Below, in pieces: positions 992 to 64,000 of a DNA stretch of 64,000 nt. The position numbers and the translations under genes were made by a program. This DNA comes from a virus. How positions within the stretch are numbered: the first letter of the stretch is position 1; every line of letters starts with the position of its first letter. The notes beneath the pieces were generated by a model that was not told where the DNA came from, made no database searches, and worked only from the letters and a program-made list of their open reading frames with translations. The stretch is from positions 63,993 to 127,992 of IMG/VR virus record IMGVR_UViG_3300049734_000491, one strand, 5' to 3'.

Positions 992-3900
992 ATGCCTGAA
1001 ATCGTCGGTACCGCGTATGTGCGGATCAAGGCCATCACCGACGGGGTGGCCAAGGACATCCAGTCCGGTCTGGACAAAGGTGCTGCCGATGTCGACGGCT
1101 CGGGGGCCGGCAGGAGAGTCGGCACGACCTTCACCCAGGGTGTGGTCGACGGGATCGACAAGGGTGGGGACGACGTCGATGCCAAACTCGGGTCGCTCGG
1201 CAAGGACGCCGATGACTCAAGTGGTTTCACCTTCGCCCAGAGATGGGCATCCAAGTTCTACCTCGGGCTCGAGAAGGCGACTGACAAGAAGAAGGAAGAC
1301 GGCTTCTTCAAGGGTCTGACCAAGAACCTCGACAAGCTCAACGACAAGCTGAAGGTTCCGAGAATTGCCCTCGCCGGCCTCTTCGGCGCACCGGCGATCG
1401 GTGGAGCGGTCCAGGCACTCGGGGGCTACATCGTCTCGATCGTCGGCCAACTCGGATACCTGAGCACCGCTGCGATCGGTGCAGCAGCCGGCATCACGGG
1501 AGCCTTCGGTGCCGCGGCGTTGGCCATCGGTCCGCTCATGCTGGCCTTCAAGGCTCAGACACCGGAGTTGGACGTCTTCCAGGCCAAGGCCTCGGCGATC
1601 GGTGACATCTGGAAGGACGTGGGTGTCGCCACCCAGAAGTACCTGCTCCCTGCCCTGACCGAGGCCATGGAGTCGTCGCTCGAGTTGGTGCCGACCTTCG
1701 AGGTCTTCGGAGAGAGCATCGGCGCCGTCTCGGGGATGCTCGCCAAGTTCGCGACGGAGATGTTGACCTCGAACCAGGTCAGCGAGCTCCTGCACAACAT
1801 CCTCGATGCCGCGATCCCGATCTTCGAGTCGTTGGGTCTGGCAGCGGTCGCCTTCGCCAGAGGGATGCTCGAGCTGTTCGATGCGGTGATCCCCTTGGCC
1901 TCACGGTTCGCCGGCACGATCCAGCACATGGCAGGGCAGTTCGCCCTGTTCATGACGGCGCAGAACCGCTCCGGTCAGCTGACCCAGACGCTCACCGAGT
2001 GGTACGACCGAGCCGAGTTGGTGGGCCAGGCGTTCATCGACTTCGGCAAGATCATCTGGAACGTGTTCAAGGTCGGTGCTGACGCAGCCACGCCGTTCTT
2101 CGAGACGTTTGCTGCGTTCGCCCAGAAGTGGGCCGACTTCTCGAAGACCGAGGTCGGGCAGGCCAAGATCAAGGGGATCTTCGAGGAGGCGGTCCCCGTC
2201 GCCCAGTCGATCAATGCCCTGCTACGGGACATCATCGGCTGGATCGTCCAACCGATCGGTAAGGACAGCTCGGGGATCGTCCGGTTCTTCGACACCCTGC
2301 GGACGGTCATGCTGCCGTCGATCCAGAAGATCGCCGAACAACTCACCGGAAACTTGTCTGGGGCCCTGGACACCTTCGTGCAGTCCATCCTGGGATTCCT
2401 GGAGGCAACTGCCTCTTCCGGATCACTTGAGGCATTCTTCGGGGTTCTCGGTCAGGTCCTCAACGTCCTCACCGCCATCATGCAGATCCCGGGGCTGGAC
2501 ACCTTCGTCGGCCTCATGCTGACCCTCGGCGGGGCGTTCAAGGCCGTCCACTTCGCGGCGAAGCCGTTCATCGCGGTCATGACCGGCTTCAAGGATCTCC
2601 TCTCGAGCAGCATGGGCAAGGCAGCGTTCAAGCCGGTGATCGAGGGCTTCGAGGCGTTCATCACCAACCCGAAGGGCGGTCTGACGGCGGCCAAGGACGG
2701 ACTCAGCACGTTCATCGGGTCCATCGGCGGAGTTGGCCTCGCCATGGGCGGGATCACCATCGCGGCCGCGGTCGGGGCTGCGGCCTTCATGGCGTGGCAG
2801 ACCAACGTCAAACGAGTTGAACAAGAGTCGAAGACCTTCGCCCAGACCCTCCTGAACGGCGGTGACGCCCTCGAGGAGCTCGACAAGAGCTACCGGAACA
2901 TCCTCAACACCCGGCAGTCCTTCGACTCCTCGATGGAGAAGAGTGGGATCAGCATCGCCCGTGTCACCAACTTGGTCAACGAGAACACCGGTGACGTGGA
3001 CAAGTTCCGGGCGGCATGGCACCACGCCGGAGGTGGCTTCAAGCAGTTCCGTGAGGAGGGCGGCAAGGTCCCCGCCTCGATGCAGGGCATCATCGCCCAC
3101 CTCGAGAAGCTGGGCGAAGCCGGCACCATGAGCCAGGGCGAGATCAATGAGGTCATCGACGGGATGACCGATCTCGACAAGCAGGCCCAGGCAGCCCAAG
3201 CTGGGATCGCAGCCCAAGCAGATCAACTGCTCAAGGCGGGAGAGGCTGCTGGCCTCAGTGCGGATCAGATGAAGTACTTCGCCGAGGCGGCAGATACTTC
3301 TGGGACGCTCGAGGAACAGAACGAGGCGCTACAACAGGGTATCGCTCTGTATCCGGTGATCGCCGAAGAAGCCGGTGTGTCGATGCAGACCATCACCCAG
3401 GTTTCCCAAGAGGTCAACCGGCAGTTCCAGTCCATCATCGACAAGCTCGACAAGTTGGCTGGTCGACAACTCAACGCTGATCAGGCCACCAGGGACTTCG
3501 CCCAATCCCAGATCGAGTTGAGCGAGAAGTTCGCCACGACCGGCGGCGTGCTGGCCGGCCAAACCAAAGAGGCCCTCGCCAACCGGGACGCCCTTGATGG
3601 CATGATCGCATCGGGCAAGCGGGCGGCTGAGGCTCAAGCATCGGTTGACTCGACCGGACAGAGTTCGATCGCTACCTTGAAGGGTTTGCAGCAACAGATC
3701 ATCCTGCTCGGACAAGCTGGTGGGTTGAGCACCGACGAGGTCAACGCCCTGCTCGATTCGTTCGGACTCTTGGACGACCAGCAGATCCAGGCCCAGGTGA
3801 GCGTTGCCACCGACCAGGCCATCACCGACACGGAGGCTCTCAAGAAAGAGATCCGTGAGATGGACGGGGTGACCGAGCCGGTGCGGCTCCGTCTCAACGC

Positions 3901-16434: not shown

Positions 16435-17736
16435 CTAATCGTACGGAAGCTCCAAGTGCTTCAGAATGTGGTACGCCAACCAACGTGCCACCGGTGAAGC
16501 GATCCCATTACCAATCATCTTGTATCGTGCACTATCTGGGATTTCGTTGCCACTTGAATCCCATCTAGTATGATCATCCGGCCAGCCCTGCAGTCGCTCA
16601 CACTCCCGAGGCGTGAGCCGTCGAACCCCGATCATGTCCCCAGCTACCTGTGGGACACCAGCTCCGTTGGCCACCCGTAGCGTCGGGGTGAACTTGTCCG
16701 ACACCTGCTCGTCGTGCAGGTTGTTCCCGTTGAACGAGACCACCGCCGGAGCGTGGCCGTCCGCCGGCAGCGTGGGCGAAGGATCCCCGGGCTTGGGATG
16801 GGATCGGTTGGTCTTGCTGGTGATCTGGGCGGTGTCGAACGGCATCGGCTCAGCCACGACCGTGTACATCCCCTTGTCGAGGCGGGTGGGGATCCCCTTG
16901 TAGTCGCGAGCTGTCAGCGTGTTGGCCATCTCTGGGATGAAGGTCATGCGCTCGGTGTCGGGTGACCAGCCACGTCGACCGGACCCCCCGCCCAGCGTGC
17001 CGGCCACGTCGGGGATCAAGTGGTTGGCTTGGGCGGAGTTGTCATCCGCGCCGCAACCTGCTCCAACGCCGTTTGCAGTGAGGGCGGAAGCGATCGTCCC
17101 CGACTTGCTGCCCTTCGCAGGATCCCGGCGCACCCTTTCGGTGACAGGAAGTATTTGGGGTCCACCGACTCTTCCAAGATCGAAGCAAGCGACGACGAAC
17201 ACTCGTCGGCGCCGTTGGGGGACTCCGCAGAAACGAGCATCCAGCACTCGCCACTGGATGTCCACCGCCCCGCATTCGGCCAAGAGGTCGAGGACTTGCG
17301 CGAAGTCGTCGCCCTGAGAGCTTGAGAGGGCGCCTCCGACGTTCTCCCAGACAGCATATGAGGGGATTCGTCCAAGGTCACGGTACTCCTTGATGATCCT
17401 GATCGCCTCGAGGAACAACCCCGAGCGAGTTCCTTCCTTCATGCCAGCTCGTTGACCCGAGATCGACAGATCTTGGCACGGGCTGCCGAAGCTGATGATG
17501 TCGCAGGGCGGCAGGTCCACTGCCTTCACGTCGGAGACATCGCCCCAGCGAGGTGTGTCCGGCCAGTGCCGAGCCAGGATCTCGTTGCACCACGAGTCCC
17601 ACTCGACCAGTCCCACGGTGTTGGCCCCGACTGCCTCGAAACCGAGATCCATGCCACCGACGCCGGCGAACAGGGAGAGGTGGTCGGCCCGAGGAGTGGC
17701 GATCCGTCGCTGTCGTCGGCGAGTTGGGGTAGCCAT
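16435..17736 (-). CDS. DNA (cytosine-5)-methyltransferase
   Basis: Motif I FAGVGG, motif IV GSPCQD, motif VI ENV, motif VIII QRRRRVF, LTPRECERLQG, motif X GN. Confidence 0.95.
   Translation of the reverse strand: MATPTRRRQRRIATPRADHLSLFAGVGGMDLGFEAVGANTVGLVEWDSWCNEILARHWPDTPRWGDVSDVKAVDLPPCDIISFGSPCQDLSISGQRAGMKEGTRSGLFLEAIRIIKEYRDLGRIPSYAVWENVGGALSSSQGDDFAQVLDLLAECGAVDIQWRVLDARFCGVPQRRRRVFVVACFDLGRVGGPQILPVTERVRRDPAKGSKSGTIASALTANGVGAGCGADDNSAQANHLIPDVAGTLGGGSGRRGWSPDTERMTFIPEMANTLTARDYKGIPTRLDKGMYTVVAEPMPFDTAQITSKTNRSHPKPGDPSPTLPADGHAPAVVSFNGNNLHDEQVSDKFTPTLRVANGAGVPQVAGDMIGVRRLTPRECERLQGWPDDHTRWDSSGNEIPDSARYKMIGNGIASPVARWLAYHILKHLELPYD
17016..17381 (-). CDS. Overprinted alternative-frame methyltransferase subunit (M.EcoHK31I beta-like)
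   Basis: SSLASILE..KYFLSPKGCAGILRRAASRGRSLPPSL, nested in the methyltransferase on the same strand in another frame. Confidence 0.65.
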   Translation of the reverse strand: MTLDESPHMLSGRTSEAPSQALRATTSRKSSTSWPNAGRWTSSGECWMLVSAESPNGADECSSSLASILEESVDPKYFLSPKGCAGILRRAASRGRSLPPSLQTALEQVAARMTTPPKPTT

Positions 17737-17763
17737 GGTCGGAGCTTACTCGGTCGACCAGGC

Positions 17764-18048
17764 TCAGCCGGGAATGGTCAACTCATTTCGGCGCTTCCGT
17801 CGTCGGCTCGTCTGGCGGTTCTTGGCCTCATCGGTGGTGGGCCCCTCCATCATCACGACGCGGACGAGCCACTGGCGGCGGCACCGAGTGTTCACGCACT
17901 GCACCACCGTCACGGCCGTGTCGGTGGAGGGTTCCTGACCCGTCTTGTGGGTGTCCCCATCACGGTCGGACTGGAAGGTGTTGCTGTTCACGTGGTCGAC
18001 CTGTCCACCACAGCGGAGGCAGGTCACATCGAGTTGGTATCGGCTCAC
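17764..18048 (-). CDS. Zinc-ribbon protein
   Basis: CLRC...CVNTRC; TAGTAT box 6 nt before the GTG start. Confidence 0.55.
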   Translation of the reverse strand: MSRYQLDVTCLRCGGQVDHVNSNTFQSDRDGDTHKTGQEPSTDTAVTVVQCVNTRCRRQWLVRVVMMEGPTTDEAKNRQTSRRRKRRNELTIPG

Positions 18049-18079
18049 AGGGCCATACTACAACTCATTGGTGAAACCC

Positions 18080-18358
18080 CGCCACCGCCGGCCGTGATTC
18101 CTGTGGCTGTCGGTGGGCTTTTGTCCGACGGTGGCGTGAGATGCCCCGCACCGCCAACCGCTCCTCGAAAGGCTGTCGAGGTAACTTCAGGTTGACGGTG
18201 CGGGAACCCGATGATCGCCACTGGTCTTGGCTGTCGATGCGACATCGGATCATTGGGTCGAGGGAGGGGCGGCTGTCGGATGTCCAATGGACCCTAGAAG
18301 GTGTCACCGCTGGCCGGAGTGCTTACAGCTGTCGCGAACTCTATGGGCCAGCGGTGAC
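18080..18358 (-). ncRNA. TIGR-like stem-loop guide array 1 (five units)
   Basis: Five hairpins whose loops read, on the - strand, NNN-N9-CGACAG-CYN-N9-CG with different spacers (one second spacer is 10 nt); directly downstream of the Tas-like gene. Confidence 0.85.
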
Positions 18359-18363
18359 GAGTA

Positions 18364-19218
18364 TTACAGACCCTCCTCTGACTTCCAGCGGGGCGGGAGG
18401 CCCGAAGCGACACGCCACAGGTCGATGCCGATCTGCTTGGCGGTGAACCGGAGGGCGGCGTTGTGCTTGTGGGCCTGCGTCCACTCCTCGCGGGCCTCGT
18501 ACTTCGCCTTGGCCTGATCGTAGGCATCACGGTAGGGAGACCGACGACGGGGCGCCCGTGTTACGGCTGTCGCGGCATTCGCGGCCGCGTCGTCGGTCAG
18601 GATGACGGGATCATCGGTACCACCACCGGTCGCGCACAGCCCAGCTCCCGTAACCACATCGGACTCGGTGGTGGTACCGGCCGAGCCGATCTGCTTGACG
18701 CAGGACTCGGCGAGCAGGTGGAGCAGCATCTTCGCCACGGGGTTGCCCAGAGCGAGGGTGTCTGCCTGGTCCATCCCCTTGCGGCGCTTGGCCGCGGGGT
18801 CGCCGTGGCCGCAGTAGGCCAGCAGCTGGCGGGGCGTGCGGTCGAACGGCTCGAGCGCCACGAGGTGGCGATCCTTGCCGCAGCGGAACGAGCACTCGTG
18901 CCCCTCGGGGGACTCGTCCATCCAGATCCACGGCTCGGCGTGGATGGGATCACCGATGGCACCGAGCAGGCGAGCCACGGTGTGCTCACCCAGTCCGACG
19001 GTGTCTCGGGCCCACGCGTAGAGCTCGGGGGCGGCGACACGGAAGGTCCGCTTCATCGCCAGCGCCAGCATCTTCTCGGTGGCCTGCAGGTTGGTCACGT
19101 GCTGGGTCATGGCCTCGGGGGCCGCTGGGATGTGGCGGAGTCTGTGCTCCGTGGCGATCCGCAGCTTCTGGGCATCGTGATAGCTCTCGGCGATCACCTT
19201 CAATTGGTCGTAGCTCAT
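18364..19218 (-). CDS. TasA-like Nop-domain RNA-guided DNA-binding protein 1 (IS110 C-terminal-like, no RuvC)
   Basis: Coiled coil, GLGEHTVARLLGAIG, QLLAYCG, GNPVAKMLL, SPYRDAYD..K, HKHNAALRFTAK; no DEDD domain; adjacent array. Confidence 0.8.
   Translation of the reverse strand: MSYDQLKVIAESYHDAQKLRIATEHRLRHIPAAPEAMTQHVTNLQATEKMLALAMKRTFRVAAPELYAWARDTVGLGEHTVARLLGAIGDPIHAEPWIWMDESPEGHECSFRCGKDRHLVALEPFDRTPRQLLAYCGHGDPAAKRRKGMDQADTLALGNPVAKMLLHLLAESCVKQIGSAGTTTESDVVTGAGLCATGGGTDDPVILTDDAAANAATAVTRAPRRRSPYRDAYDQAKAKYEAREEWTQAHKHNAALRFTAKQIGIDLWRVASGLPPRWKSEEGL
18540..18679 (-). ncRNA. Two guide hairpins embedded in frame in Tas-like gene 1
   Basis: CCG-ATGTGGTTA-CGGGAG-CTG-GGCTGTGCG-CG (18615-18679) and CCG-CGAATGCCG-CGACAG-CCG-TAACACGGG-CG (18540-18597), each closed by a long stem. 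Confidence 0.8.
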
Positions 19219-19252
19219 TGTCTTGTCCTTTGGTCGTTGTCGTTGTCGTTGG

Positions 19253-19747
19253 TCAGTTGTCGAGGTCAGCGAGACAGGTCACGCCGGCCGCGATGATGGT
19301 CTGTGCAGCCTCCTCGTGGGCGAGGCGGGTGTCACGGATGGAGTTCTCTTGGGTGAGCAGCCAGCCCGCACGGGCGAGATGGTCGTCGGCGGTTGCCTTC
19401 AACCATTCAACCCATCGTCCATCGGGCAGGATGAACGACTGCTCCATGAGCAGCCGACGGGCGGTAGTGGGGTCGGCTCCGGCCGCGATGTCGGTCCGGA
19501 CTCGGATCTCGGTCCGACGAACCTCGGCCCGCTGAATGCGGGACACCTCGTAGCGCACGAGCTGGAGCAGCCAGCGCCGTCGCTCGGACTCGGTGAGCGC
19601 AGCGATGGCTGCCTCGGCGATGTCCTGCTGATCTTCGAGACCCGAAGCGATCGCAGCCTTGATGTGGGCGTAGAGCGACGTGGGTGTCGTGACAGCCGAC
19701 GGGAGGGTAGTGGTTGTCGGTGTTGTTGGTGGTGCTTGGAACGTCAT
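19253..19747 (-). CDS. Tas-associated partner protein 1 (function unknown)
   Basis: DGRWVEWLKATADDHLARAGW...IAAGVTCLADL; paralog of 60863-61561. Confidence 0.7.
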   Translation of the reverse strand: MTFQAPPTTPTTTTLPSAVTTPTSLYAHIKAAIASGLEDQQDIAEAAIAALTESERRRWLLQLVRYEVSRIQRAEVRRTEIRVRTDIAAGADPTTARRLLMEQSFILPDGRWVEWLKATADDHLARAGWLLTQENSIRDTRLAHEEAAQTIIAAGVTCLADLDN

Positions 19748-19818
19748 GGCGGTGACTATAACACACGGTCCTTCGCTGCTGACAAATTACCTGTGGTATC
19801 CACAGGAAGGAGCTCGCT

Positions 19819-19944
19819 GTGAGTCCCCGAGGAAGAGATCCTGATGACCCAGACGAGTTCCTGCTGTTCGTGCTGGTCGGCCTCGCTTGCCTGGTCCTGC
19901 TGTTCTACTGGTTCCTGTGGTGGTACCGAACAGGCGGGTCGTAA
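19819..19944 (+). CDS. Small membrane protein
   Basis: AAGGAG RBS; MSPRGRDPDDPDEFLLFVLVGLACLVLLFYWFLWWYRTGGS (41 aa, one TM helix). Confidence 0.5.
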   Translation: MSPRGRDPDDPDEFLLFVLVGLACLVLLFYWFLWWYRTGGS

Positions 19945-19949
19945 CAGGA

Positions 19950-19978
19950 TTGACACGAACGGAACCCATCTGTAGTAC
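19950..19978 (+). promoter_or_regulatory. SigA-like promoter for the transglycosylase gene
   Basis: TTGACA-17 nt-TAGTAC. Confidence 0.65.
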
Positions 19979-20064
19979 CCTGCCACAAACGAACGGAGCG
20001 ACCCCCCCTGCCAAGAGAAGGTCGCTCCGTTGTCCTAATCATCCACTGAAAGGACCCGCCGATT

Positions 20065-20517
20065 ATGGCACGCCCCAAGGCGCTCCGGCGAAAGATTCTG
20101 CTCGCAATCGGAGCCCTGCTCAGCTTCGGTACCCTCGCAGCCTGCTCGCCACACCAGATCGCTGTGTTCAACAGCCTCTCTCCCGAAGGACAGACTGCAG
20201 TGCTCCAGGAGCTGCAGCGTCAACAGGGCGGAGGAGGAAGTGGTGGTGACTGCTACAGCGCCATCGAACAGGTCTGGCCCGGACATCTCCAGGCCAAGGC
20301 TCGGACCATCGTGTCCCGCGAGTCCGGCAACAACCCCAGTGCCCAGAACCGTTCATCATCCGCGGCGGGTTGTTGGCAAATCCTGACTGGCTCGTGGATC
20401 GACCCCGGCGGCTGCCCGAGGTCAACTCGTTACGACGCCGTGTGCAACACCCGTGCAGCGCTGGCGCTCTACAACTCGGCCGGCGGTTGGTCGCCGTGGA
20501 GGCTGACCGCCTACTGA
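20065..20517 (+). CDS. Secreted lipoprotein, lytic transglycosylase (SLT/Rpf-like)
   Basis: Signal peptide with LAAC lipobox; IVSRESG..P.AQN..SSAAGCWQI; GWSPW. Confidence 0.8.
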   Translation: MARPKALRRKILLAIGALLSFGTLAACSPHQIAVFNSLSPEGQTAVLQELQRQQGGGGSGGDCYSAIEQVWPGHLQAKARTIVSRESGNNPSAQNRSSSAAGCWQILTGSWIDPGGCPRSTRYDAVCNTRAALALYNSAGGWSPWRLTAY

Positions 20518-58376: not shown

Positions 58377-58463
58377 ATCGCTCAGCGAAGGCTCATCGCT
58401 GATTCGGGGCGACGATCAAGGATCGATCGCTACCGTGCAGTGTAAGTGCTGGGCACGAGCTCG

Positions 58464-59603
58464 TCAGGCCGGTGCTGGAACCGACGTCTCGGCGTACCGC
58501 TGGTGGCGCTGGCCCGAGATGTAGTTCGGTGAGGTCGAGATCATGGCGATGGCCACGTCCGGTCCGTCGTCGGTGACGTCGCACGGTGTGCGGAAATCGC
58601 ACCAGCCGCAGGCATCGCTGGGGGACGGGAAGGCGTACCGCTCGGCCAGGTGCACCGTGGAGGGCTGGGCGGTCAGGGGCGTGACGTCGGCGGACGGGGG
58701 CGTGACCGGATCGAGCTGCAACGTGGCGTCGATGAGCTCGGCCACCACCGAGAAGATCTGCCGTCGGCGGCTGCGGCGCAGCGCCTGGGAGTGCGTGATC
58801 GGCAGGTCCCTCACCTCGGTGGGGGCATTTCTGGAGCGGGGTCGCTGGATGATCCGGTAGTTGAACTCGGCTGGGGGAGAGTTGGTTGAGATTGCCCGGG
58901 CCCGTGCCTCTTGGAGCGGAGCCGGTAGATCCTGAGCCATCTCCAGAAGCATGTCGTAGAAATACGACTGATTGGATCGCTGGAACCCCTCGTCCACCTG
59001 GAAGGTCCGGCCCGTCGTCTTCCAGTCCGTCATCCGGATCTGGGCGTAGCGGGGATCACTGGGATCGGGCGAGGTGTGCTGCTGAACCAGGTCGACCTTG
59101 CCCTGCAACCGGATCGCTGTGAAGCCCTGCTGCCGGAGTTGGGACGTCCGCTGGGCCACGGCGTGGGGGGAGTCGAGTTGTTCCCAGACGGGATCATCGA
59201 ACTCGAGGGTGTACCGCAACTTGGCTTCGGTGCAGACAGGATCCCACTGGGCGTCGGGTTGGTTCTCCTCCAGCCAGGTCACGTAGTCAGCCACCATCCG
59301 CCGACCGAGCAGCACATCCTCGTAGAGCTTGTCGCACACCCAGGGTGGCTGGCCGGTGCTCGAGGCCCGGGCGATGTCACGCTGGGCAAGCTCCTCGAAA
59401 AGCTGTCTGGGGTCTCTCGGGCCGGCTGGGTCGTAGTGACCCTCGAGCGCCTCGTGCACCCGGACACCGGCTGGGGCTGCTCCGACCGGGAACCGTGCAT
59501 CGCTGAACCCGAGCACGTAGTTGAACCAGAACTGTCTCCTGCACTGCAGGAAGCTGGCGATATCGGAATGGCTGATGTCAAAAGAACGGCCTGTACGAGT
59601 CAT
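58464..59603 (-). CDS. PD-(D/E)XK exonuclease (Cas4/RecB-like, Cys cluster)
   Basis: SHS..FLQCRRQ, G.RVHEALE, GKVDLV, DWKT, CGWCDFRTPC. Confidence 0.85.
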   Translation of the reverse strand: MTRTGRSFDISHSDIASFLQCRRQFWFNYVLGFSDARFPVGAAPAGVRVHEALEGHYDPAGPRDPRQLFEELAQRDIARASSTGQPPWVCDKLYEDVLLGRRMVADYVTWLEENQPDAQWDPVCTEAKLRYTLEFDDPVWEQLDSPHAVAQRTSQLRQQGFTAIRLQGKVDLVQQHTSPDPSDPRYAQIRMTDWKTTGRTFQVDEGFQRSNQSYFYDMLLEMAQDLPAPLQEARARAISTNSPPAEFNYRIIQRPRSRNAPTEVRDLPITHSQALRRSRRRQIFSVVAELIDATLQLDPVTPPSADVTPLTAQPSTVHLAERYAFPSPSDACGWCDFRTPCDVTDDGPDVAIAMISTSPNYISGQRHQRYAETSVPAPA

Positions 59604-59835
59604 GATCCGTACCGTTTCCTTGGTCCCAGCGGGAACGTGGATGGGTCTGGATCAGACTCGCACAGGCCTGTGACAAAATCGAGGATGGTCTACCTCTTGT
59701 TGGAGGGAGTGGACGATCCCCGTGGGGTGGTGTCTGCCGCGACCTTGGCGGTGCCGGTGCCGGCTCCGGTGCTGGTACCGATGCGGTAGACGCCCCGATC
59801 ACTCGCCCAGAGTACCTGTAATCAGTTGAGGAATA

Positions 59836-60011
59836 GTCCCCAGCGGCGGTCATCAAGGGGGTATCGCATCTTCTAAGGCCGCTGGGGACCGAGGATGCCA
59901 TCGACGGCGACTCTGGTTTGGGCATCGCTACTTCTACGACCGTCGATGGCGAAGGTGTCCCCGACGGCGGGGTATCGGTGGGTATCGCATGTGCTCCGAC
60001 CGTCGGGGACA
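59836..60011 (-). ncRNA. TIGR-like stem-loop guide array 2 (three units; a degenerate fourth at 59730-59793)
   Basis: Hairpins with loops NNN-N9-CGATRC-CCM-N9-CG; spacer pairs GAGCACATG/CCGATACCC, TAGAAGTAG/AACCAGAGT, TAGAAGATG/CTTGATGAC. Confidence 0.85.
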
Positions 60012-60017
60012 GACCAG

Positions 60018-60866
60018 TCACGCAAGCGTCGTCAGGTAGAGGTTATAGAGCCGACGAAGGAACTCCTTCGAGGTCCGCCGGATGGCGGCGTTGTCAGCGT
60101 GTCCCTTCGTCCAGCCGCGCTCTGAGTACATGAGCTTGGAGAGGTCGAGGTAGCAGCGGAGACAGAGGTCGTCCCGGACAGCGTCGCTACTGTGGGTGTC
60201 GGTCATACCATGACCGCCCGGGACGACGAAGGTGCCATCGACGGCGGGGCATCGGTGGGTGTCGTATGTGCTCTGGCCGTCAGGGAGATCGAGGACGCAG
60301 CCCGGAGTGTGCTCACCGGCCTTCCTGATCTGTGTCGTGTTCAAGTAGAGCAATGACTTGATGCGGACGTTGCCGGACGCCATCGCCTCGGACTGTGTCA
60401 TGCCCTTGGTGCGGCGGCGGGTCGGGTCGCCCAGAGCGCAGTAGGACCAGAGCTGGGAAACGGATCGGATCTGCGGCTCACCCTGCACCAACACCCGTTC
60501 GTCCGTGCTCCCCGCCTCGGATCCGGGAATCCACCACTTCGGGATGGCGACCACCGGATGTCCGATCGCTCCGAGGATCCGTGCGACGGTGTGCTCGCCG
60601 ACACCGCGCTGTGCCGCGACCCACTCCCGCACCGGTTCGGGAACGACATCACGGTAGGTCCTCTTCAGGGCCTTGCTGGCGGCCTTCTCGATCTCAGTCA
60701 ACAGATGGATCTGATCGTCGAAGAGACCAGCAGGAGCGTGTCTCAAACGATTACCGGTAGCGATCCTCATCAGCTGCATATCAGTGAACTGATCGGCGGC
60801 GAGACGCAGGAGCCGGTACTGATCATCAAGGGCGTCGATGGCATCGACATCCTTGAGGTCGATCAC
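60018..60866 (-). CDS. TasA-like Nop-domain protein 2
   Basis: GVGEHTVARILGAIG, SQLWSYCALGDP, GNVRIKSLL, GHADNAAIRRTSKEFL; paralog of 18364-19218. Confidence 0.8.
   Translation of the reverse strand: MIDLKDVDAIDALDDQYRLLRLAADQFTDMQLMRIATGNRLRHAPAGLFDDQIHLLTEIEKAASKALKRTYRDVVPEPVREWVAAQRGVGEHTVARILGAIGHPVVAIPKWWIPGSEAGSTDERVLVQGEPQIRSVSQLWSYCALGDPTRRRTKGMTQSEAMASGNVRIKSLLYLNTTQIRKAGEHTPGCVLDLPDGQSTYDTHRCPAVDGTFVVPGGHGMTDTHSSDAVRDDLCLRCYLDLSKLMYSERGWTKGHADNAAIRRTSKEFLRRLYNLYLTTLA
60168..60281 (-). ncRNA. Two guide hairpins embedded in frame in Tas-like gene 2
   Basis: CCA-GAGCACATA-CGACAC-CCA-CCGATGCCC-CG and TCA-TGGTATGAC-CGACAC-CCA-CAGTAGCGA-CG, each within a stem. Confidence 0.8.
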
Positions 60867-61561
60867 GCCAGCTCCTTCGGCGGGACAACCGTCAGGAGTG
60901 ATGCATCGGTCGACGGTGGCTCGGGACGCTTGGCCTCGGGCAATGCAGCGAGGTTGGGCACGCCGGCCTCAATGAGAGCATCGATCGCGTTCTGGTGCCG
61001 CTGGCAGTCGGTCTGGAGCGGTTCAATGTACCGCCGGTTGATCCAAGCGATCCGACCAGCGTGCTGTTCGATGGTCGCCTCAAGCCAGTCGACGTAGTCG
61101 GTGCCGTCGAAGAACTTGTACCCACCGAGTTGGTCCTTGGCGAGACGCGACCACGTCCGATGAACCGGTTCGGTCTCAGCCACCTCGACCTCCTCGGTGG
61201 GGATGTGTTCCGATTCACCGTTCTCTGCGGACTCACCCTCCTCAGTGGCAGGTGGGGGAGTGGTAACGGGGACGGTGGGGGTGTACGGATCGCCCACAGC
61301 ATTCTCGGCATCACGGGTCAGAGCCCGCTGCCACGTCTTGGCCTCCTTGATGAGCGAGGCGAGGACATACTTCTCGTACTCCGCTGTGGTCATCGCCTTG
61401 ATCGCCCGCTCAGCCAGCTTCTCCGGATCGGTGGTGTGGGGCTCGTCCCGATGTGGAACCGCCGAGGCGAAGATCTCAACCAGTGGTCGGATCTTCGGAG
61501 TGGATGACGACGAGGTCGTCGAAGTGGGCGTGGTCATCATCGTCACGTCGACGAGTTCCAT
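60863..61561 (-). CDS. Tas-associated partner protein 2
   Basis: DGTDYVDWLEATIEQHAGRIAW...IEAGVPNLAAL; GTGA-coupled to Tas-like gene 2. Confidence 0.7.
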   Translation of the reverse strand: MELVDVTMMTTPTSTTSSSSTPKIRPLVEIFASAVPHRDEPHTTDPEKLAERAIKAMTTAEYEKYVLASLIKEAKTWQRALTRDAENAVGDPYTPTVPVTTPPPATEEGESAENGESEHIPTEEVEVAETEPVHRTWSRLAKDQLGGYKFFDGTDYVDWLEATIEQHAGRIAWINRRYIEPLQTDCQRHQNAIDALIEAGVPNLAALPEAKRPEPPSTDASLLTVVPPKELA

Positions 61562-61686
61562 GAGATCTCCCTGTTGGTCTTGGTCTTGGTCTTGGTCTTG
61601 ATCATCGGCAGTTGGCCACATGAAGCAGGGAGACCAGTAGGTCATCTCTCACACCGACTGCCGCCTCGGGTTCAAGTAGGCGTTGG

Positions 61687-61715
61687 AGTATACGAGTTGT
61701 AGTGCATGATTGCAA
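61687..61715 (-). promoter_or_regulatory. SigA-like promoter of TIGR-like locus 2
   Basis: TTGCAA-17 nt-TATACT on the - strand. Confidence 0.7.
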
Positions 61716-61807
61716 ATCGGCGCTGGCGGTCACCACTATGCATAAGTAGACCGCAGCCAAGTTGAGGAATCGGGTCGCTCGGGGAAATTTTTCAGTAGGG
61801 TCCGAAG

Positions 61808-62530
61808 ATGGCTGAGACCCAGACACGAACACGGTCCATCGGCACCGTCACGGTCGCCCTTGCCCTGCTGCTCACCTTGGTGGGCGGTGCGTTGGGAGGT
61901 GGGGCCGTCGGGGCCCAGGAGACGGTCCCGCTCAACCCGGCCCACGTCGGGGCGGTCGGCTCGGAGTTCTCGGAGAACTGCACGGGGCTGCCCCGTCCGG
62001 TGGTGGGGAGCGAGGTGGCGTGGCACTTCGTGCTGCCCCAGCCGGAGCAGGGCGTGTTCGTGTCGCTGACCGTGGAGTTCGAGTTGGCCGGCGAGATCAC
62101 GATCACCACGTTCGGGCCCCCGACCGCGATGCACGCCTACGTGTACACACCGACCGACGACACGTTGTTGGGCGGGACGGCCGAGACCACGCAGAACCCA
62201 CCGGGATCGTTCTTCAACCTGTCGTCGGTGTGCGCCGGCAGTGGGACGACCACGAGCTCGTCCACGTCGAGCACGACCAGCTCCACGTCGTCTACGTCGA
62301 GCACGTCATCGTCGACCACGTCGTCAACATCGTCAACATCGTCATCGACGACCTCGAGCACGACGACAACGTCGAGCACGGTGCCCACGACCACGGGGTC
62401 GACCACGACCACCACGACCACGACGCGGCCACCTTCACCGCCTCCTGCGCCGCCTGTGACGAGTCCGCCGTCGTCACCACCTGTGGCGGCACCGCCCAGT
62501 GCCAGCCCTCCGTTGAAGTTCACGGGGTGA
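61808..62530 (+). CDS. Secreted Ser/Thr/Pro-rich surface protein ending in FTG
   Basis: Signal peptide, folded domain, S/T linker, C-terminal PLKFTG*. Confidence 0.7.
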   Translation: MAETQTRTRSIGTVTVALALLLTLVGGALGGGAVGAQETVPLNPAHVGAVGSEFSENCTGLPRPVVGSEVAWHFVLPQPEQGVFVSLTVEFELAGEITITTFGPPTAMHAYVYTPTDDTLLGGTAETTQNPPGSFFNLSSVCAGSGTTTSSSTSSTTSSTSSTSSTSSSTTSSTSSTSSSTTSSTTTTSSTVPTTTGSTTTTTTTTRPPSPPPAPPVTSPPSSPPVAAPPSASPPLKFTG

Positions 62531-62542
62531 GGGGCGCAGGGA

Positions 62543-62842
62543 TCACCAACTGAGTGGCAGGTCCTCCTCCGGGCGGGGGAGGAAGCCTGTCACGGTGATG
62601 CAGGTGTAGCCCTGCTCGGTGTCGTAGTCGGCGTCGTTGCGGAACAGGATCGGGCCGTCGAACCCGAGTTCGGTGGCCATGTCACGCGCGACCTTCTTCG
62701 CCATGCGTTGGCTCGAGGCGCAGTTGTACAGCTCGGAAGCCGGCTCGTTCTGGGAGACGTCGTTGATCTGGTCGAAGTCGATGAACCAGGCACCGTGGCG
62801 CTTGGTGATCTGGCCGATGGTCTGGCGGGGATGGGAAGTCAT
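62543..62842 (-). CDS. Hypothetical protein
   Basis: 99 aa with strong codon bias. Confidence 0.5.
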   Translation of the reverse strand: MTSHPRQTIGQITKRHGAWFIDFDQINDVSQNEPASELYNCASSQRMAKKVARDMATELGFDGPILFRNDADYDTEQGYTCITVTGFLPRPEEDLPLSW

Positions 62843-63020
62843 GGTGGGCCCTGTCGTCAGTGTAAATGATGGTTCGGAACACGCTGGGCCGCTTTCCTTT
62901 CGGCTGTCGAGAAGCCATTGGACCCAGCGTGTTCCTCACCACATACAGGCCGAGGGAGGGCGGGGATCCTTCGGGGCGGGGGAGATTTCCTGAGAGTCCG
63001 CTACCCATCGGAGTGGTGGA

Positions 63021-63476
63021 TCAACTGGCCTTGGCGTCCTCGGCCGCCTCGGTTGCGGCAATCGTGGCCGCGTCCATGATCTCCACCGTGTGTCGGGCGG
63101 ACCGCTCGAGTTCCCGGACCGTCCGACCGTCGGATGACCGACCGCTCGTACCCCGAACGCCCGAGGAGAAGATCGCGTGGACCGTCGTCATCAGACGCTT
63201 GGCGTACTTGAGCCTGTCGGCGCTCCACACCTTCGTCTCCCGCTCGAAGCCGGGGATCAGCATGATGCGGTGGGGCTCCCGCCATCCCTGCCGAACGGTC
63301 GGGATGTTGTGCTTCTCCTCCTCGCCGAGGTGGTCCCGCAGGTTCTGAACCGTGAGACGGGCAACCTGGACGGAGCAGCCGAGGAGGTCAGCCAACTCGG
63401 CGTAGGTGAAGCCGGCTGGGTTGGCCTTCAAGAGGTCGTACAGCTTCTCACGACGAAGGATCGTCCTGGACCTCAT
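63021..63476 (-). CDS. HTH protein
   Basis: FTYAELADLLGCSVQVAR. Confidence 0.6.
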   Translation of the reverse strand: MRSRTILRREKLYDLLKANPAGFTYAELADLLGCSVQVARLTVQNLRDHLGEEEKHNIPTVRQGWREPHRIMLIPGFERETKVWSADRLKYAKRLMTTVHAIFSSGVRGTSGRSSDGRTVRELERSARHTVEIMDAATIAATEAAEDAKAS

Positions 63477-64000
63477 GACAGCTCCCCGAGTCGGGCCAAC
63501 TCGGCATCCCAGTCGATGTCGTCGGTGCCCCCGAAGCGGAGCCCGATGAGGTCGATCAGAGCCTTGAGCTGGTTGACCGTGTCCCGCAGGAGCTCCATCT
63601 CGTCGTCGGAGAGGTCGACGTCGTGGGCCTCCTTCAGGGCATCGGTGAGGTTGCGCCGAGCCGTCATGAACCGACCCTCGAGCGACAGGTACACGAGGGT
63701 GTGGCCGGCCTTGCGGCTCTCCTCCACCCGCTTCGCGCGGGCCTTGTCCTTGGCCCGAGCAGAGGCGGCCTTGGGGATCTCCTCCTCCACGGTGGTGCCC
63801 TTGGCCTCGGCCCGTTCGCGGGCGTGGTGGACCACGTCAGCGATCTCGTTCCGATGGGCTCGTGTCACGTTGCCCGCCGTCGTGCCGGTCGCAGCAGCGA
63901 TGGCCTCGGCCGCTGCGGCCTTCTCGGTGGTGAGACCGGCCAGCTGAATCTGGTCGTTGAGGGAGTGGGTGATCGGGGCACCCCGATCACTCGCCTCCTT
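63473..64000 (-). CDS. Hypothetical helical protein (5' end outside the window)
   Basis: Frame open from 64000 to the stop at 63473; ATGA overlap with the HTH gene. Confidence 0.55.
   Translation of the reverse strand, partial: KEASDRGAPITHSLNDQIQLAGLTTEKAAAAEAIAAATGTTAGNVTRAHRNEIADVVHHARERAEAKGTTVEEEIPKAASARAKDKARAKRVEESRKAGHTLVYLSLEGRFMTARRNLTDALKEAHDVDLSDDEMELLRDTVNQLKALIDLIGLRFGGTDDIDWDAELARLGELS

Follow-up and report, generated by a model that had tools for sequence, protein, structure and literature searches.

A stem-loop TIGR-TasA module predicted at one of two diverged tas loci in a soil phage genome

The stretch of DNA analysed here (the window; 64,000 nucleotides, positions 63,993 to 127,992) is the second half of the 127,992-bp IMG/VR virus record IMGVR_UViG_3300049734_000491, for which a completeness of 95% is estimated. 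On the minus strand of the window, from 59835 to 61715, a sigma-70-like promoter, a partner gene (partner2), a Tas-like gene (tasA2) and a series of hairpin units are arranged in this order (locus 2), and a related locus (locus 1) lies 41.6 kb away. Locus 2 is very probably a complete stem-loop TIGR-TasA module, namely an RNA-guided DNA binder or repressor that does not cut. In the mechanism we propose, a single transcript from the promoter probably carries partner2, the coupled tasA2 and five hairpin guides, two of which would lie in frame in a disordered insertion of TasA2 and three after its stop codon. Each excised hairpin would be bound by a TasA2 dimer, and of its two 9-nt spacers one would base-pair with each strand of an 18-bp target. 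Bound in this way, the complex would leave the DNA uncut and would obstruct transcription or a different process, like other TasA proteins; its targets would be found in the host or in rival elements, and locus 1 would be another module, diverged from this one and distinguished by its loop core. TasA has been reported to bind DNA and repress transcription (Xu et al. 2026, 10.64898/2026.09.09.750476), and the structure of PlTasA is described as having 9-bp heteroduplexes on both strands (Guan et al. 2026, 10.64898/2026.08.11.744272).

A motif-anchored census found five hairpin units at locus 2 (Table 1), which share one plan: a 7-15 bp stem of free sequence closes a 30-nt loop of about C-N + N9 + CGAYRCCC(A/C) + N9 + C. 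From these letters and their arrangement, the hairpins are guide units of the stem-loop TIGR family type, the published layout of which combines a 9-nt loop with a pair of 9-nt spacers and with letters resembling box C/D (Faure 2025, PMC12045711; Xu 2026; Guan 2026). An earlier reading of the window made from the sequence alone (hereafter the sequence-only reading) had listed three hairpin units; three do follow the tasA2 stop codon, but the total is five, since two more are in frame inside tasA2. The loop pattern that it had given, CGA(T/C)(A/G)C-CC(A/C), fits all five units, and the part of its range from 59730 to 59834 contains no guide unit.

Table 1. Positions of the features of locus 2, locus 1 and the orphan unit (numbered from the first letter of the window)
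Feature	Positions	Strand	Description
Sigma-70-like promoter	61687-61715	-	TTGCAA-17-TATACT, from pattern search
5' leader	61562-61686	-	(GACCAA)n run, then GGGAG ahead of ATG
partner2	60863-61561	-	232 aa; member of the family sited upstream of tas genes
tasA2	60018-60866	-	282 aa; predicted coiled coil and Nop-type RNA-binding domain, without nuclease domain
Intragenic unit i1	60239-60282	-	7-bp stem, loop core CGACACCCA; encodes residues about 195-210; covariance-model match 60240-60281, E 0.0018
Intragenic unit i2	60168-60227	-	15-bp stem with 3 G-U, loop core CGACACCCA; encodes residues about 214-233; covariance-model match 60174-60221, E 0.00058
Unit u1	59956-60011	-	13-bp stem, loop core CGATACCCA; covariance-model E 5.1e-5, best in genome
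Unit u2	59897-59950	-	12-bp stem, loop core CGATGCCCA; covariance-model E 0.00041
Unit u3	59835-59890	-	13-bp stem, loop core CGATACCCC; covariance-model E 0.00022
Locus 1	18080-19747	-	
partner1	19253-19747	-	
tasA1	18364-19218	-	
Locus 1, intragenic unit	18539-18598	-	
Locus 1, downstream units	18080-18358	-	
Orphan unit	62876-62935	-	15-bp stem, loop CGACAGCCG, locus-1 type; covariance-model E 0.0029

To place these units in a family, 58 viral loci encoding relatives of Tas2 (the tasA2 product) were retrieved and scanned for hairpins. Hairpins with a CGAYRSC loop motif numbered 152 on the tas strand and 29 on the other strand. An alignment of 130 distinct units, all taken from these loci with this phage excluded, gave the consensus stem + CCA-N9-CG + AnACC + CA-N9-CG(stem), in which the half-site CCA-N9-CG occurs twice. 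A covariance model built from the 130 units was then run on both strands of the whole genome (128.4 kb), and its first five hits were the five locus-2 units (Table 1). The next hits were the orphan unit (62882-62929, E 0.0029), several near genome positions 3.4-3.8 kb (E 0.005-0.1) and the intragenic unit of tasA1 (E 0.19); the search placed no locus-2-type unit in the genome outside locus 2. Pairing within the genome's own units gave a similar picture: over the nine inner stem pairs of 14 aligned units, 98.4% of 126 cells were paired (55.3% when shuffled, 22-49% when slid), 52 cells were changed on both sides compared with 18.8 in shuffles, and eight of the nine pairs changed on both sides. 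Note that this stem count is partly by construction because the 14 units were picked as hairpins, so that the evidence from the covariance model is more independent.

Unit u1 differs from i1 by one base per spacer, and an alignment of u1 and its flanking sequence with the coding stretch 60222-60286 shows 83% identity; the array thus grew by copying an intragenic unit. This origin from gene sequence is also what could be expected if the hairpins were not guides at all but duplicated coding remnants, or if they were terminators or attenuators. We regard this explanation as extremely unlikely, because the hairpins have no T tracts, the terminator scan is empty there, and their exact 30-nt loop geometry and CG/CC positions are common with the 130 units beside the Tas genes of other phages. 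The motif ACCTTC is found 3' of the 3' arm in u1, i1 and the first locus-1 unit, and is replaced by ATCCTC in u2 and TATTCC in u3; it may correspond to the CUU processing mark reported for stem-loop tigRNAs. The ACCTTC sites lie within 60018-60286, 59945-60009 and 18295-18303. According to Xu et al. (2026), the processing enzyme of stem-loop TIGR systems is not yet known.

Judged by its predicted structure, Tas2 is a TasA protein with the Tas/Nop-type fold, consisting of coiled-coil dimerisation helices and a C-terminal RNA-binding domain. Its AlphaFold2 model, computed with a 25-row alignment, has a predicted local distance difference test value (pLDDT) of 83.3 and a predicted template modelling score of 0.80. 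When the model was compared with the Protein Data Bank (PDB) using Foldseek, TasR (9MTY) ranked first (E 1.3e-5, template modelling score 0.54), ranks 1-7 were all TasR or TasH structures (five TasH entries at ranks 3-7), and IS110-type recombinases appeared from rank 8. The best phmmer match among PDB sequences was also 9mty_A, with an E value of 0.035 that is weak on its own; the alignment covers the F.D.Q..RI.TGNRL and GHA.N.A.R..K.FL helices. The alignment of Tas2 to TasR begins at TasR residue 121, past the RuvC part, and a Pfam scan of Tas2 listed no domain at E<=1. Since the first helix of the model starts at residue 7, a RuvC or HNH domain would not fit ahead of it, which points to the nuclease-free TasA form. 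In PHROGs, Tas2 (E 3.8e-27) and Tas1, the tasA1 product (E 2.6e-25), match phrog_4285, a family labelled 'transposase'. The IS110-family transposase suggested by this label was considered for Tas2 and rejected, as no residues are available ahead of the coiled coil for a DEDD domain and IS110 structures rank under TasR/TasH.

The only long low-confidence stretch of the Tas2 model (pLDDT <50 at residues 198-214 and 216-222) lies in the part encoded by i1 and i2 (residues about 195-233), which are in frame within an insertion between the later C-terminal helices. This correspondence matches the arrangement described by Xu et al. (2026), in which intragenic tigRNAs are located within a disordered stretch of the Tas frame.

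The remaining parts of the module are also in place. The pattern TTGCAA-17-TATACT has a single match in the window and none in 100 shuffles, and a promoter scan of 59300-63100 gave the locus-2 promoter as the sole sigma-70-like site (two overlapping registers, shuffle mean 0.4). The leader repeat reads TTGGTC 4.5 times on the plus strand at 61574-61600. The partner2 open reading frame spans 60863-61645; the likelier start is the ATG at 61561, which is preceded by GGGAG and gives 232 aa. The GTG start of tasA2 overlaps the TGA stop of partner2 as GTGA, with GAAGGAG just 5' of the GTG, and from this overlap the two genes are probably translationally coupled. Thus the anatomy assigned to locus 2 in the sequence-only reading (promoter, partner gene, Tas-like gene and post-stop hairpins) was borne out by the pattern search, the open reading frames and the hairpin scan.

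Several observations weigh against the interpretation of locus 2 as a complete, working module. A terminator scan found none downstream of the array, including the stretch up to the following PD-(D/E)XK gene. The stem-side box C adenine, which 90% or more of the 130 units of other loci retain, is absent in u1-u3 (CG, CG and CT instead of CA) and is present in only 4 of the 14 aligned units of this genome; in PlTasA, the box C adenine is described as stacking on the protein (Guan et al. 2026). Of 59 columns conserved at 85% or more in 23 homologues, Tas2 departs from nine, five of which are in the C-terminal helices; the changes at near-invariant C-terminal residues are Y236L, Y240L, D272R and W274Y. 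In a maximum-likelihood tree, Tas2 is on a long branch (2.94).

The lost adenines, the C-terminal changes and the long branch, together with the small number of units (5 compared with about 20 motifs of the other loop type), could indicate that locus 2 is a decaying or silenced copy with a diverged TasA and a few weakly bound guides. We consider this unlikely, because the 282-codon frame is intact and has a confident fold, because the stems of u1-u3 (12-13 bp) have no mismatch and at most one G-U each though their sequences differ, and because no other sequence in the genome scores as well with the covariance model as the five units do. The promoter, the ribosome-binding sites and the GTGA overlap are also retained, and RNA libraries contain pieces that match the locus exactly.

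The locus-2 stretch is almost fully covered by soil metagenome runs, and contigs of four soil metatranscriptome runs match it with zero differences at 59857-60000 (u3-u1), 59961-60139 (u1 and the gene end), 60171-60321 (i1 and i2), 60924-61109 (partner2) and 61462-61663 (the partner2 start and the leader). All five pieces are within the predicted transcription unit. At 58400-59812 and 61697-63100, the RNA-library cover was only a 26-nt piece of an unrelated 1796-nt contig, and such an uncovered stretch is uninformative. These matches give only a hint that locus 2 is transcribed, as they are contigs from runs found via this very stretch, with DNA carry-over possible and with ends, strand and processing not readable, which counts on the same side as the points listed above.

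So does the search for targets. The genome was searched with 18 guides in both tandem 9+9 geometries and with up to four mismatches, and no target was found at <=2 mismatches. At three mismatches there were 3 and 1 matches, compared with 2-3 in three control arrangements, and the frequency at 3-4 mismatches was as in the controls; the spacer 9-mers have 35 other occurrences in the genome compared with 31 +/- 9 for shuffled spacers, and are thus neither depleted nor enriched. Because no target was found in the phage itself, the guides are probably directed at the host or at competing elements. The host is likely to be an actinobacterium, since relatives of Tas2 occur in actinobacterial phages and Actinomycetota: 85 phage records (83 from Mycobacterium, one from Gordonia and one from Rhodococcus), none of which covers 80% of Tas2, and 12 bacterial genome loci, eight of them Actinomycetota by title. 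The 36 spacers have a G+C content of 49.7% compared with 63.8% for the genome; this could mean that the targets are in AT-richer DNA, for example promoters, or that selection has favoured easy melting.

Locus 1 has the same gene order as locus 2 (partner, tas, hairpins), which confirmed the same architecture claimed for a position about 41 kb away. The same promoter pattern had also been claimed there, but it is limited to locus 2, and no promoter-like site was found in 17600-20100. Tas1 and Tas2 are 35% identical (E 6e-36), and partner1 and partner2 are 27% identical (E 5e-6). The loops at locus 1 read CGACAGC(C/T)N. A second hairpin inside tasA1 (18615-18679, minus strand) has a 14-bp perfect stem and a 37-nt loop; no clear CGACAGCC core is seen on the gene strand, and the opposite strand reads GCGCACAGCC.

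Units with the locus-1 type of loop are not confined to locus 1. The orphan unit occupies the gap that separates two small genes on the minus strand and lies 1.2 kb upstream of the locus-2 promoter. Outside the window, a noncoding array at about genome 3233-3876 on the plus strand contains 13 CGAC(A/G)GCC motifs (3233-3848) about 36-60 nt apart, at least nine of which form locus-1-type hairpin units. This array is the largest of the phage and is found downstream of an 850-aa gene, about 79 kb from tasA1 and far from both tas genes. Elsewhere, the CGAC(A/G)GCC motif occurs five times in locus 1 and once in the orphan hairpin. The sequence CGACAGCC has 33 copies in the genome compared with 9.9 in shuffles (maximum 16), and these copies are clustered in locus 1, the orphan unit and the 13-motif array. 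The total is about 25 guides over four places in the 128-kb genome, the locus-1 type being about four times as many as the locus-2 type and scattered.

The loop types are strictly divided among the 14 aligned units: all five locus-2 units have CGAYRCCC, and all nine others have CGAC(A/G)GC followed by C or T and any base. A different loop had been assigned to locus 2 in the sequence-only reading. The two types do differ, but among the 58 related loci none has, on the tas strand, a 30-nt-loop hairpin with the CGAC(A/G)GC core, and many have CGAYRCC or, more broadly, CG-NNNN-CCA; it is therefore locus 1 that departs from the family, and locus 2 is family-typical. The claim that the two sets share no spacers held, as the closest pair of a locus-2 guide and a CGACRGCC-type guide differs at 10 of 18 positions. 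The loop-side CCA adenine is kept in 4/5 locus-2 units compared with 2/9 of the others. On the protein side, Tas1 and Tas2 each depart from the 59 conserved columns at nine positions, none of which is common to both; these departures are located mostly in the C-terminal helices for Tas2 and around the VSQLW stretch for Tas1. The proposal of two diverged RNA-guided binders in one phage agrees with these results, in that both proteins belong to the Tas family (Tas2 by its fold, and both by the match to phrog_4285) and each has its own partner and guides.

Separate guide pools are reasonably favoured by the strict loop partition, the loop-side adenine and the divergence of the proteins, and the simplest reading of these sequence comparisons is that each TasA would read its own set. 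Going further, the two modules may form a natural orthogonal pair (CGAYRCCCA and CGACRGCCN), which would have been driven apart by co-residence through the loop in module 1 and the C-terminal helices in module 2, with the partner as an undescribed subunit of the TasA clade such as a loader, a processing factor or part of the effector; we put this forward tentatively. The support for orthogonality is a correlation within one genome, which has to be set against it. It is also possible, although we would not rely on it, that both modules work without being orthogonal: either TasA would load either hairpin from a larger shared guide pool, and the loop difference would reflect separate ancestry. 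In other loci the loop middle varies freely within single arrays, which leaves room for cross-use; in one related locus (L006) the loops are CGAAGTCCA, CGGAGTCCA and CGTTGTCCA, suggesting that recognition of the loop core need not depend on every base. Both types also have invariant elements in common, namely the C before spacer A, the CG after each spacer and the paired stem, and the orphan unit with the locus-1 type of loop is located close to locus 2. Cross-loading is at odds with the uniformity of each loop type in this genome (5/5 and 9/9), with the uneven retention of the loop-side CCA, and with the different conserved positions at which Tas1 and Tas2 deviate.

The sequence-only reading had also raised a heterodimeric pair. 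In this case, one protomer (TasA1 or TasA2) would be on the stem side of the guide and the other on the loop side, an idea suggested by the facts that Tas proteins act as dimers on pseudo-symmetric RNA and that the halves of a stem-loop guide are not equivalent. None of our analyses supports a heterodimer, and we consider it very improbable: the two genes are 41.6 kb apart, each with its own promoter region, partner and guide set; the Tas complexes described by Xu et al. (2026) and Guan et al. (2026) are homodimers; and the other related viral records of at least 100 kb (10/10) have a single tas gene, indicating that the family works without a second subunit.

We reconstructed the maximum-likelihood tree mentioned above from 50 Tas proteins. 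Tas1 and Tas2 fall within one 15-row clade (support 92/83), Tas1 pairs with the protein of another phage (L009; support 94/89), and the placement of Tas2 is unsure. The description of the two loci as paralogous is therefore loose: both proteins are in one Tas clade, but Tas1 pairs with L009 and not with Tas2, so the two are not a recent duplication within this genome, an inference that is limited by the long branch of Tas2. Two tas genes were found in 0 of the 10 other related viral records of at least 100 kb, and no contig occurs twice among the 58 loci. Tas relatives are present on two contigs of one Propionibacteriaceae metagenome-assembled genome (L073/L075), which may be another organism with two tas genes. 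We also looked for the locus-1 loop elsewhere by scanning viral contigs for three CGACAGCC motifs 35-62 nt apart, with the record of this phage possibly outside the scan. Of the 81 stretches obtained, 80 (L079-L158) were analysed: correctly shaped hairpin units never numbered more than one per stretch, and tblastn at E<=1e-5 gave no Tas relative. These 80 stretches are unrelated repeats.

The upstream open reading frames of the 58 loci formed one cluster of 19 sequences (from 17 loci, together with both partners of this phage) and another from 24 loci. The profiles of the two clusters match each other (probability 97.4%, E 1.2e-11, 153 columns), which indicates one partner family upstream of tas in at least 41 of the 58 related viral loci. 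The core conserved in this family reads F.LPDG..V.WGEAT.EQH..R, and the two helices after it end in G..CL.DL. Searched against 1.84 billion representatives, the partner profile matched 2081 proteins at E<=0.001, of which 1573 reached E<=1e-10; most are about 150 aa long. Among 33 family members, Pfam at E<=1 gave no family common to any two, and ParB was not listed; a profile search of PDB sequences gave only coiled-coil-like noise (E>=0.011). The AlphaFold2 model of the partner has a pLDDT of 70.3, Foldseek found nothing at E<=0.001, and the best VIA Z was 4.7. In PHROGs, partner2 had no match and partner1 had a weak one (phrog_2342, E 0.0017, function not assigned); a word-based homologue search returned only the query protein, and ESM Atlas gave no usable match. 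A recognisably ParB-like partner of the TasParB kind is not supported by the Pfam, PDB profile or fold searches, and a remote homology may exist. The predicted complex of Tas2 with partner2 (residues 24-212) had a score of 0.00 and a mark of 0.32, a result that counts neither way on binding.

Directly 3' of the locus-2 array, the gene at 58464-59603 (minus strand) encodes a member of the PD-(D/E)XK nuclease superfamily (PF12705, E 4.6e-21). On the other side of the locus, a divergent 240-aa open reading frame (61808-62530, plus strand) has a hydrophobic N-terminus, a long Ser/Thr-rich repeat with tandem repeats at 62283-62425, and no Pfam match. A megablast search of 58400-62600 against 50,697 phage records gave no match.

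This kind of system is known (TIGR-TasA, 2025-2026), and what is unusual is that a single genome has two copies with different marks. Neither Xu (2026) nor Faure (2025) mentions co-resident or orthogonal Tas genes in the main text, the supplementary tables being outside this search. TIGR-Tas proteins are very small RNA-guided DNA binders that are free of a protospacer-adjacent motif and are under active development as tools. If the orthogonal pair is true, it would provide ready-made channels for multiplexed repression or activation and would show which letters of the RNA a TasA reads. The partner family, with its 2081 representative clusters, is a candidate for the missing component of stem-loop systems. 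The number and spread of the guides show how much a single soil phage invests in them; that none of them targets the phage itself points to control of the host or of competitors.

Among the known systems, the module resembles PlTasA from a Peromyscus leucopus gut contig (Faure 2025; Guan 2026), which is likewise nuclease-free and phage-borne, with a coiled coil and Nop domain and with tandem hairpins whose palindromic stems vary and which have two spacers of about 9 nt and short conserved box C/D-like letters. Unlike PlTasA, this phage has two modules with distinct loop cores and a partner that is probably translationally coupled, and its guides often lack the stem-side box C adenine. With BlTasA, which has intragenic tigRNAs, and MbTasA, an RNA-guided repressor, both from the paper with the TIGRFinder survey (Xu 2026), it has in common the guides inside the tas frame in a disordered stretch, the 9-nt loop and the expectation of binding without cutting, whereas the embedded unit of BlTasA is described as lying in the wedge loop and both units here are between later C-terminal helices. 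As in the TasA-TasParB operons (Faure 2025), a small accessory gene is located directly upstream of tasA and would be operonised with it; in those operons the arrays are described as dual-repeat and the accessory protein as ParB-like, whereas here the array is of the stem-loop type and the partner has no Pfam or clear fold match. Finally, gp71 of mycobacteriophage Bethlehem (NC_009878.1), likewise from an actinobacterial phage, is homologous over Tas2 residues 16-184 (30.6% identity, E 7e-11), and such Bethlehem-type mycobacteriophage genes are labelled 'transposase' or 'hypothetical'.

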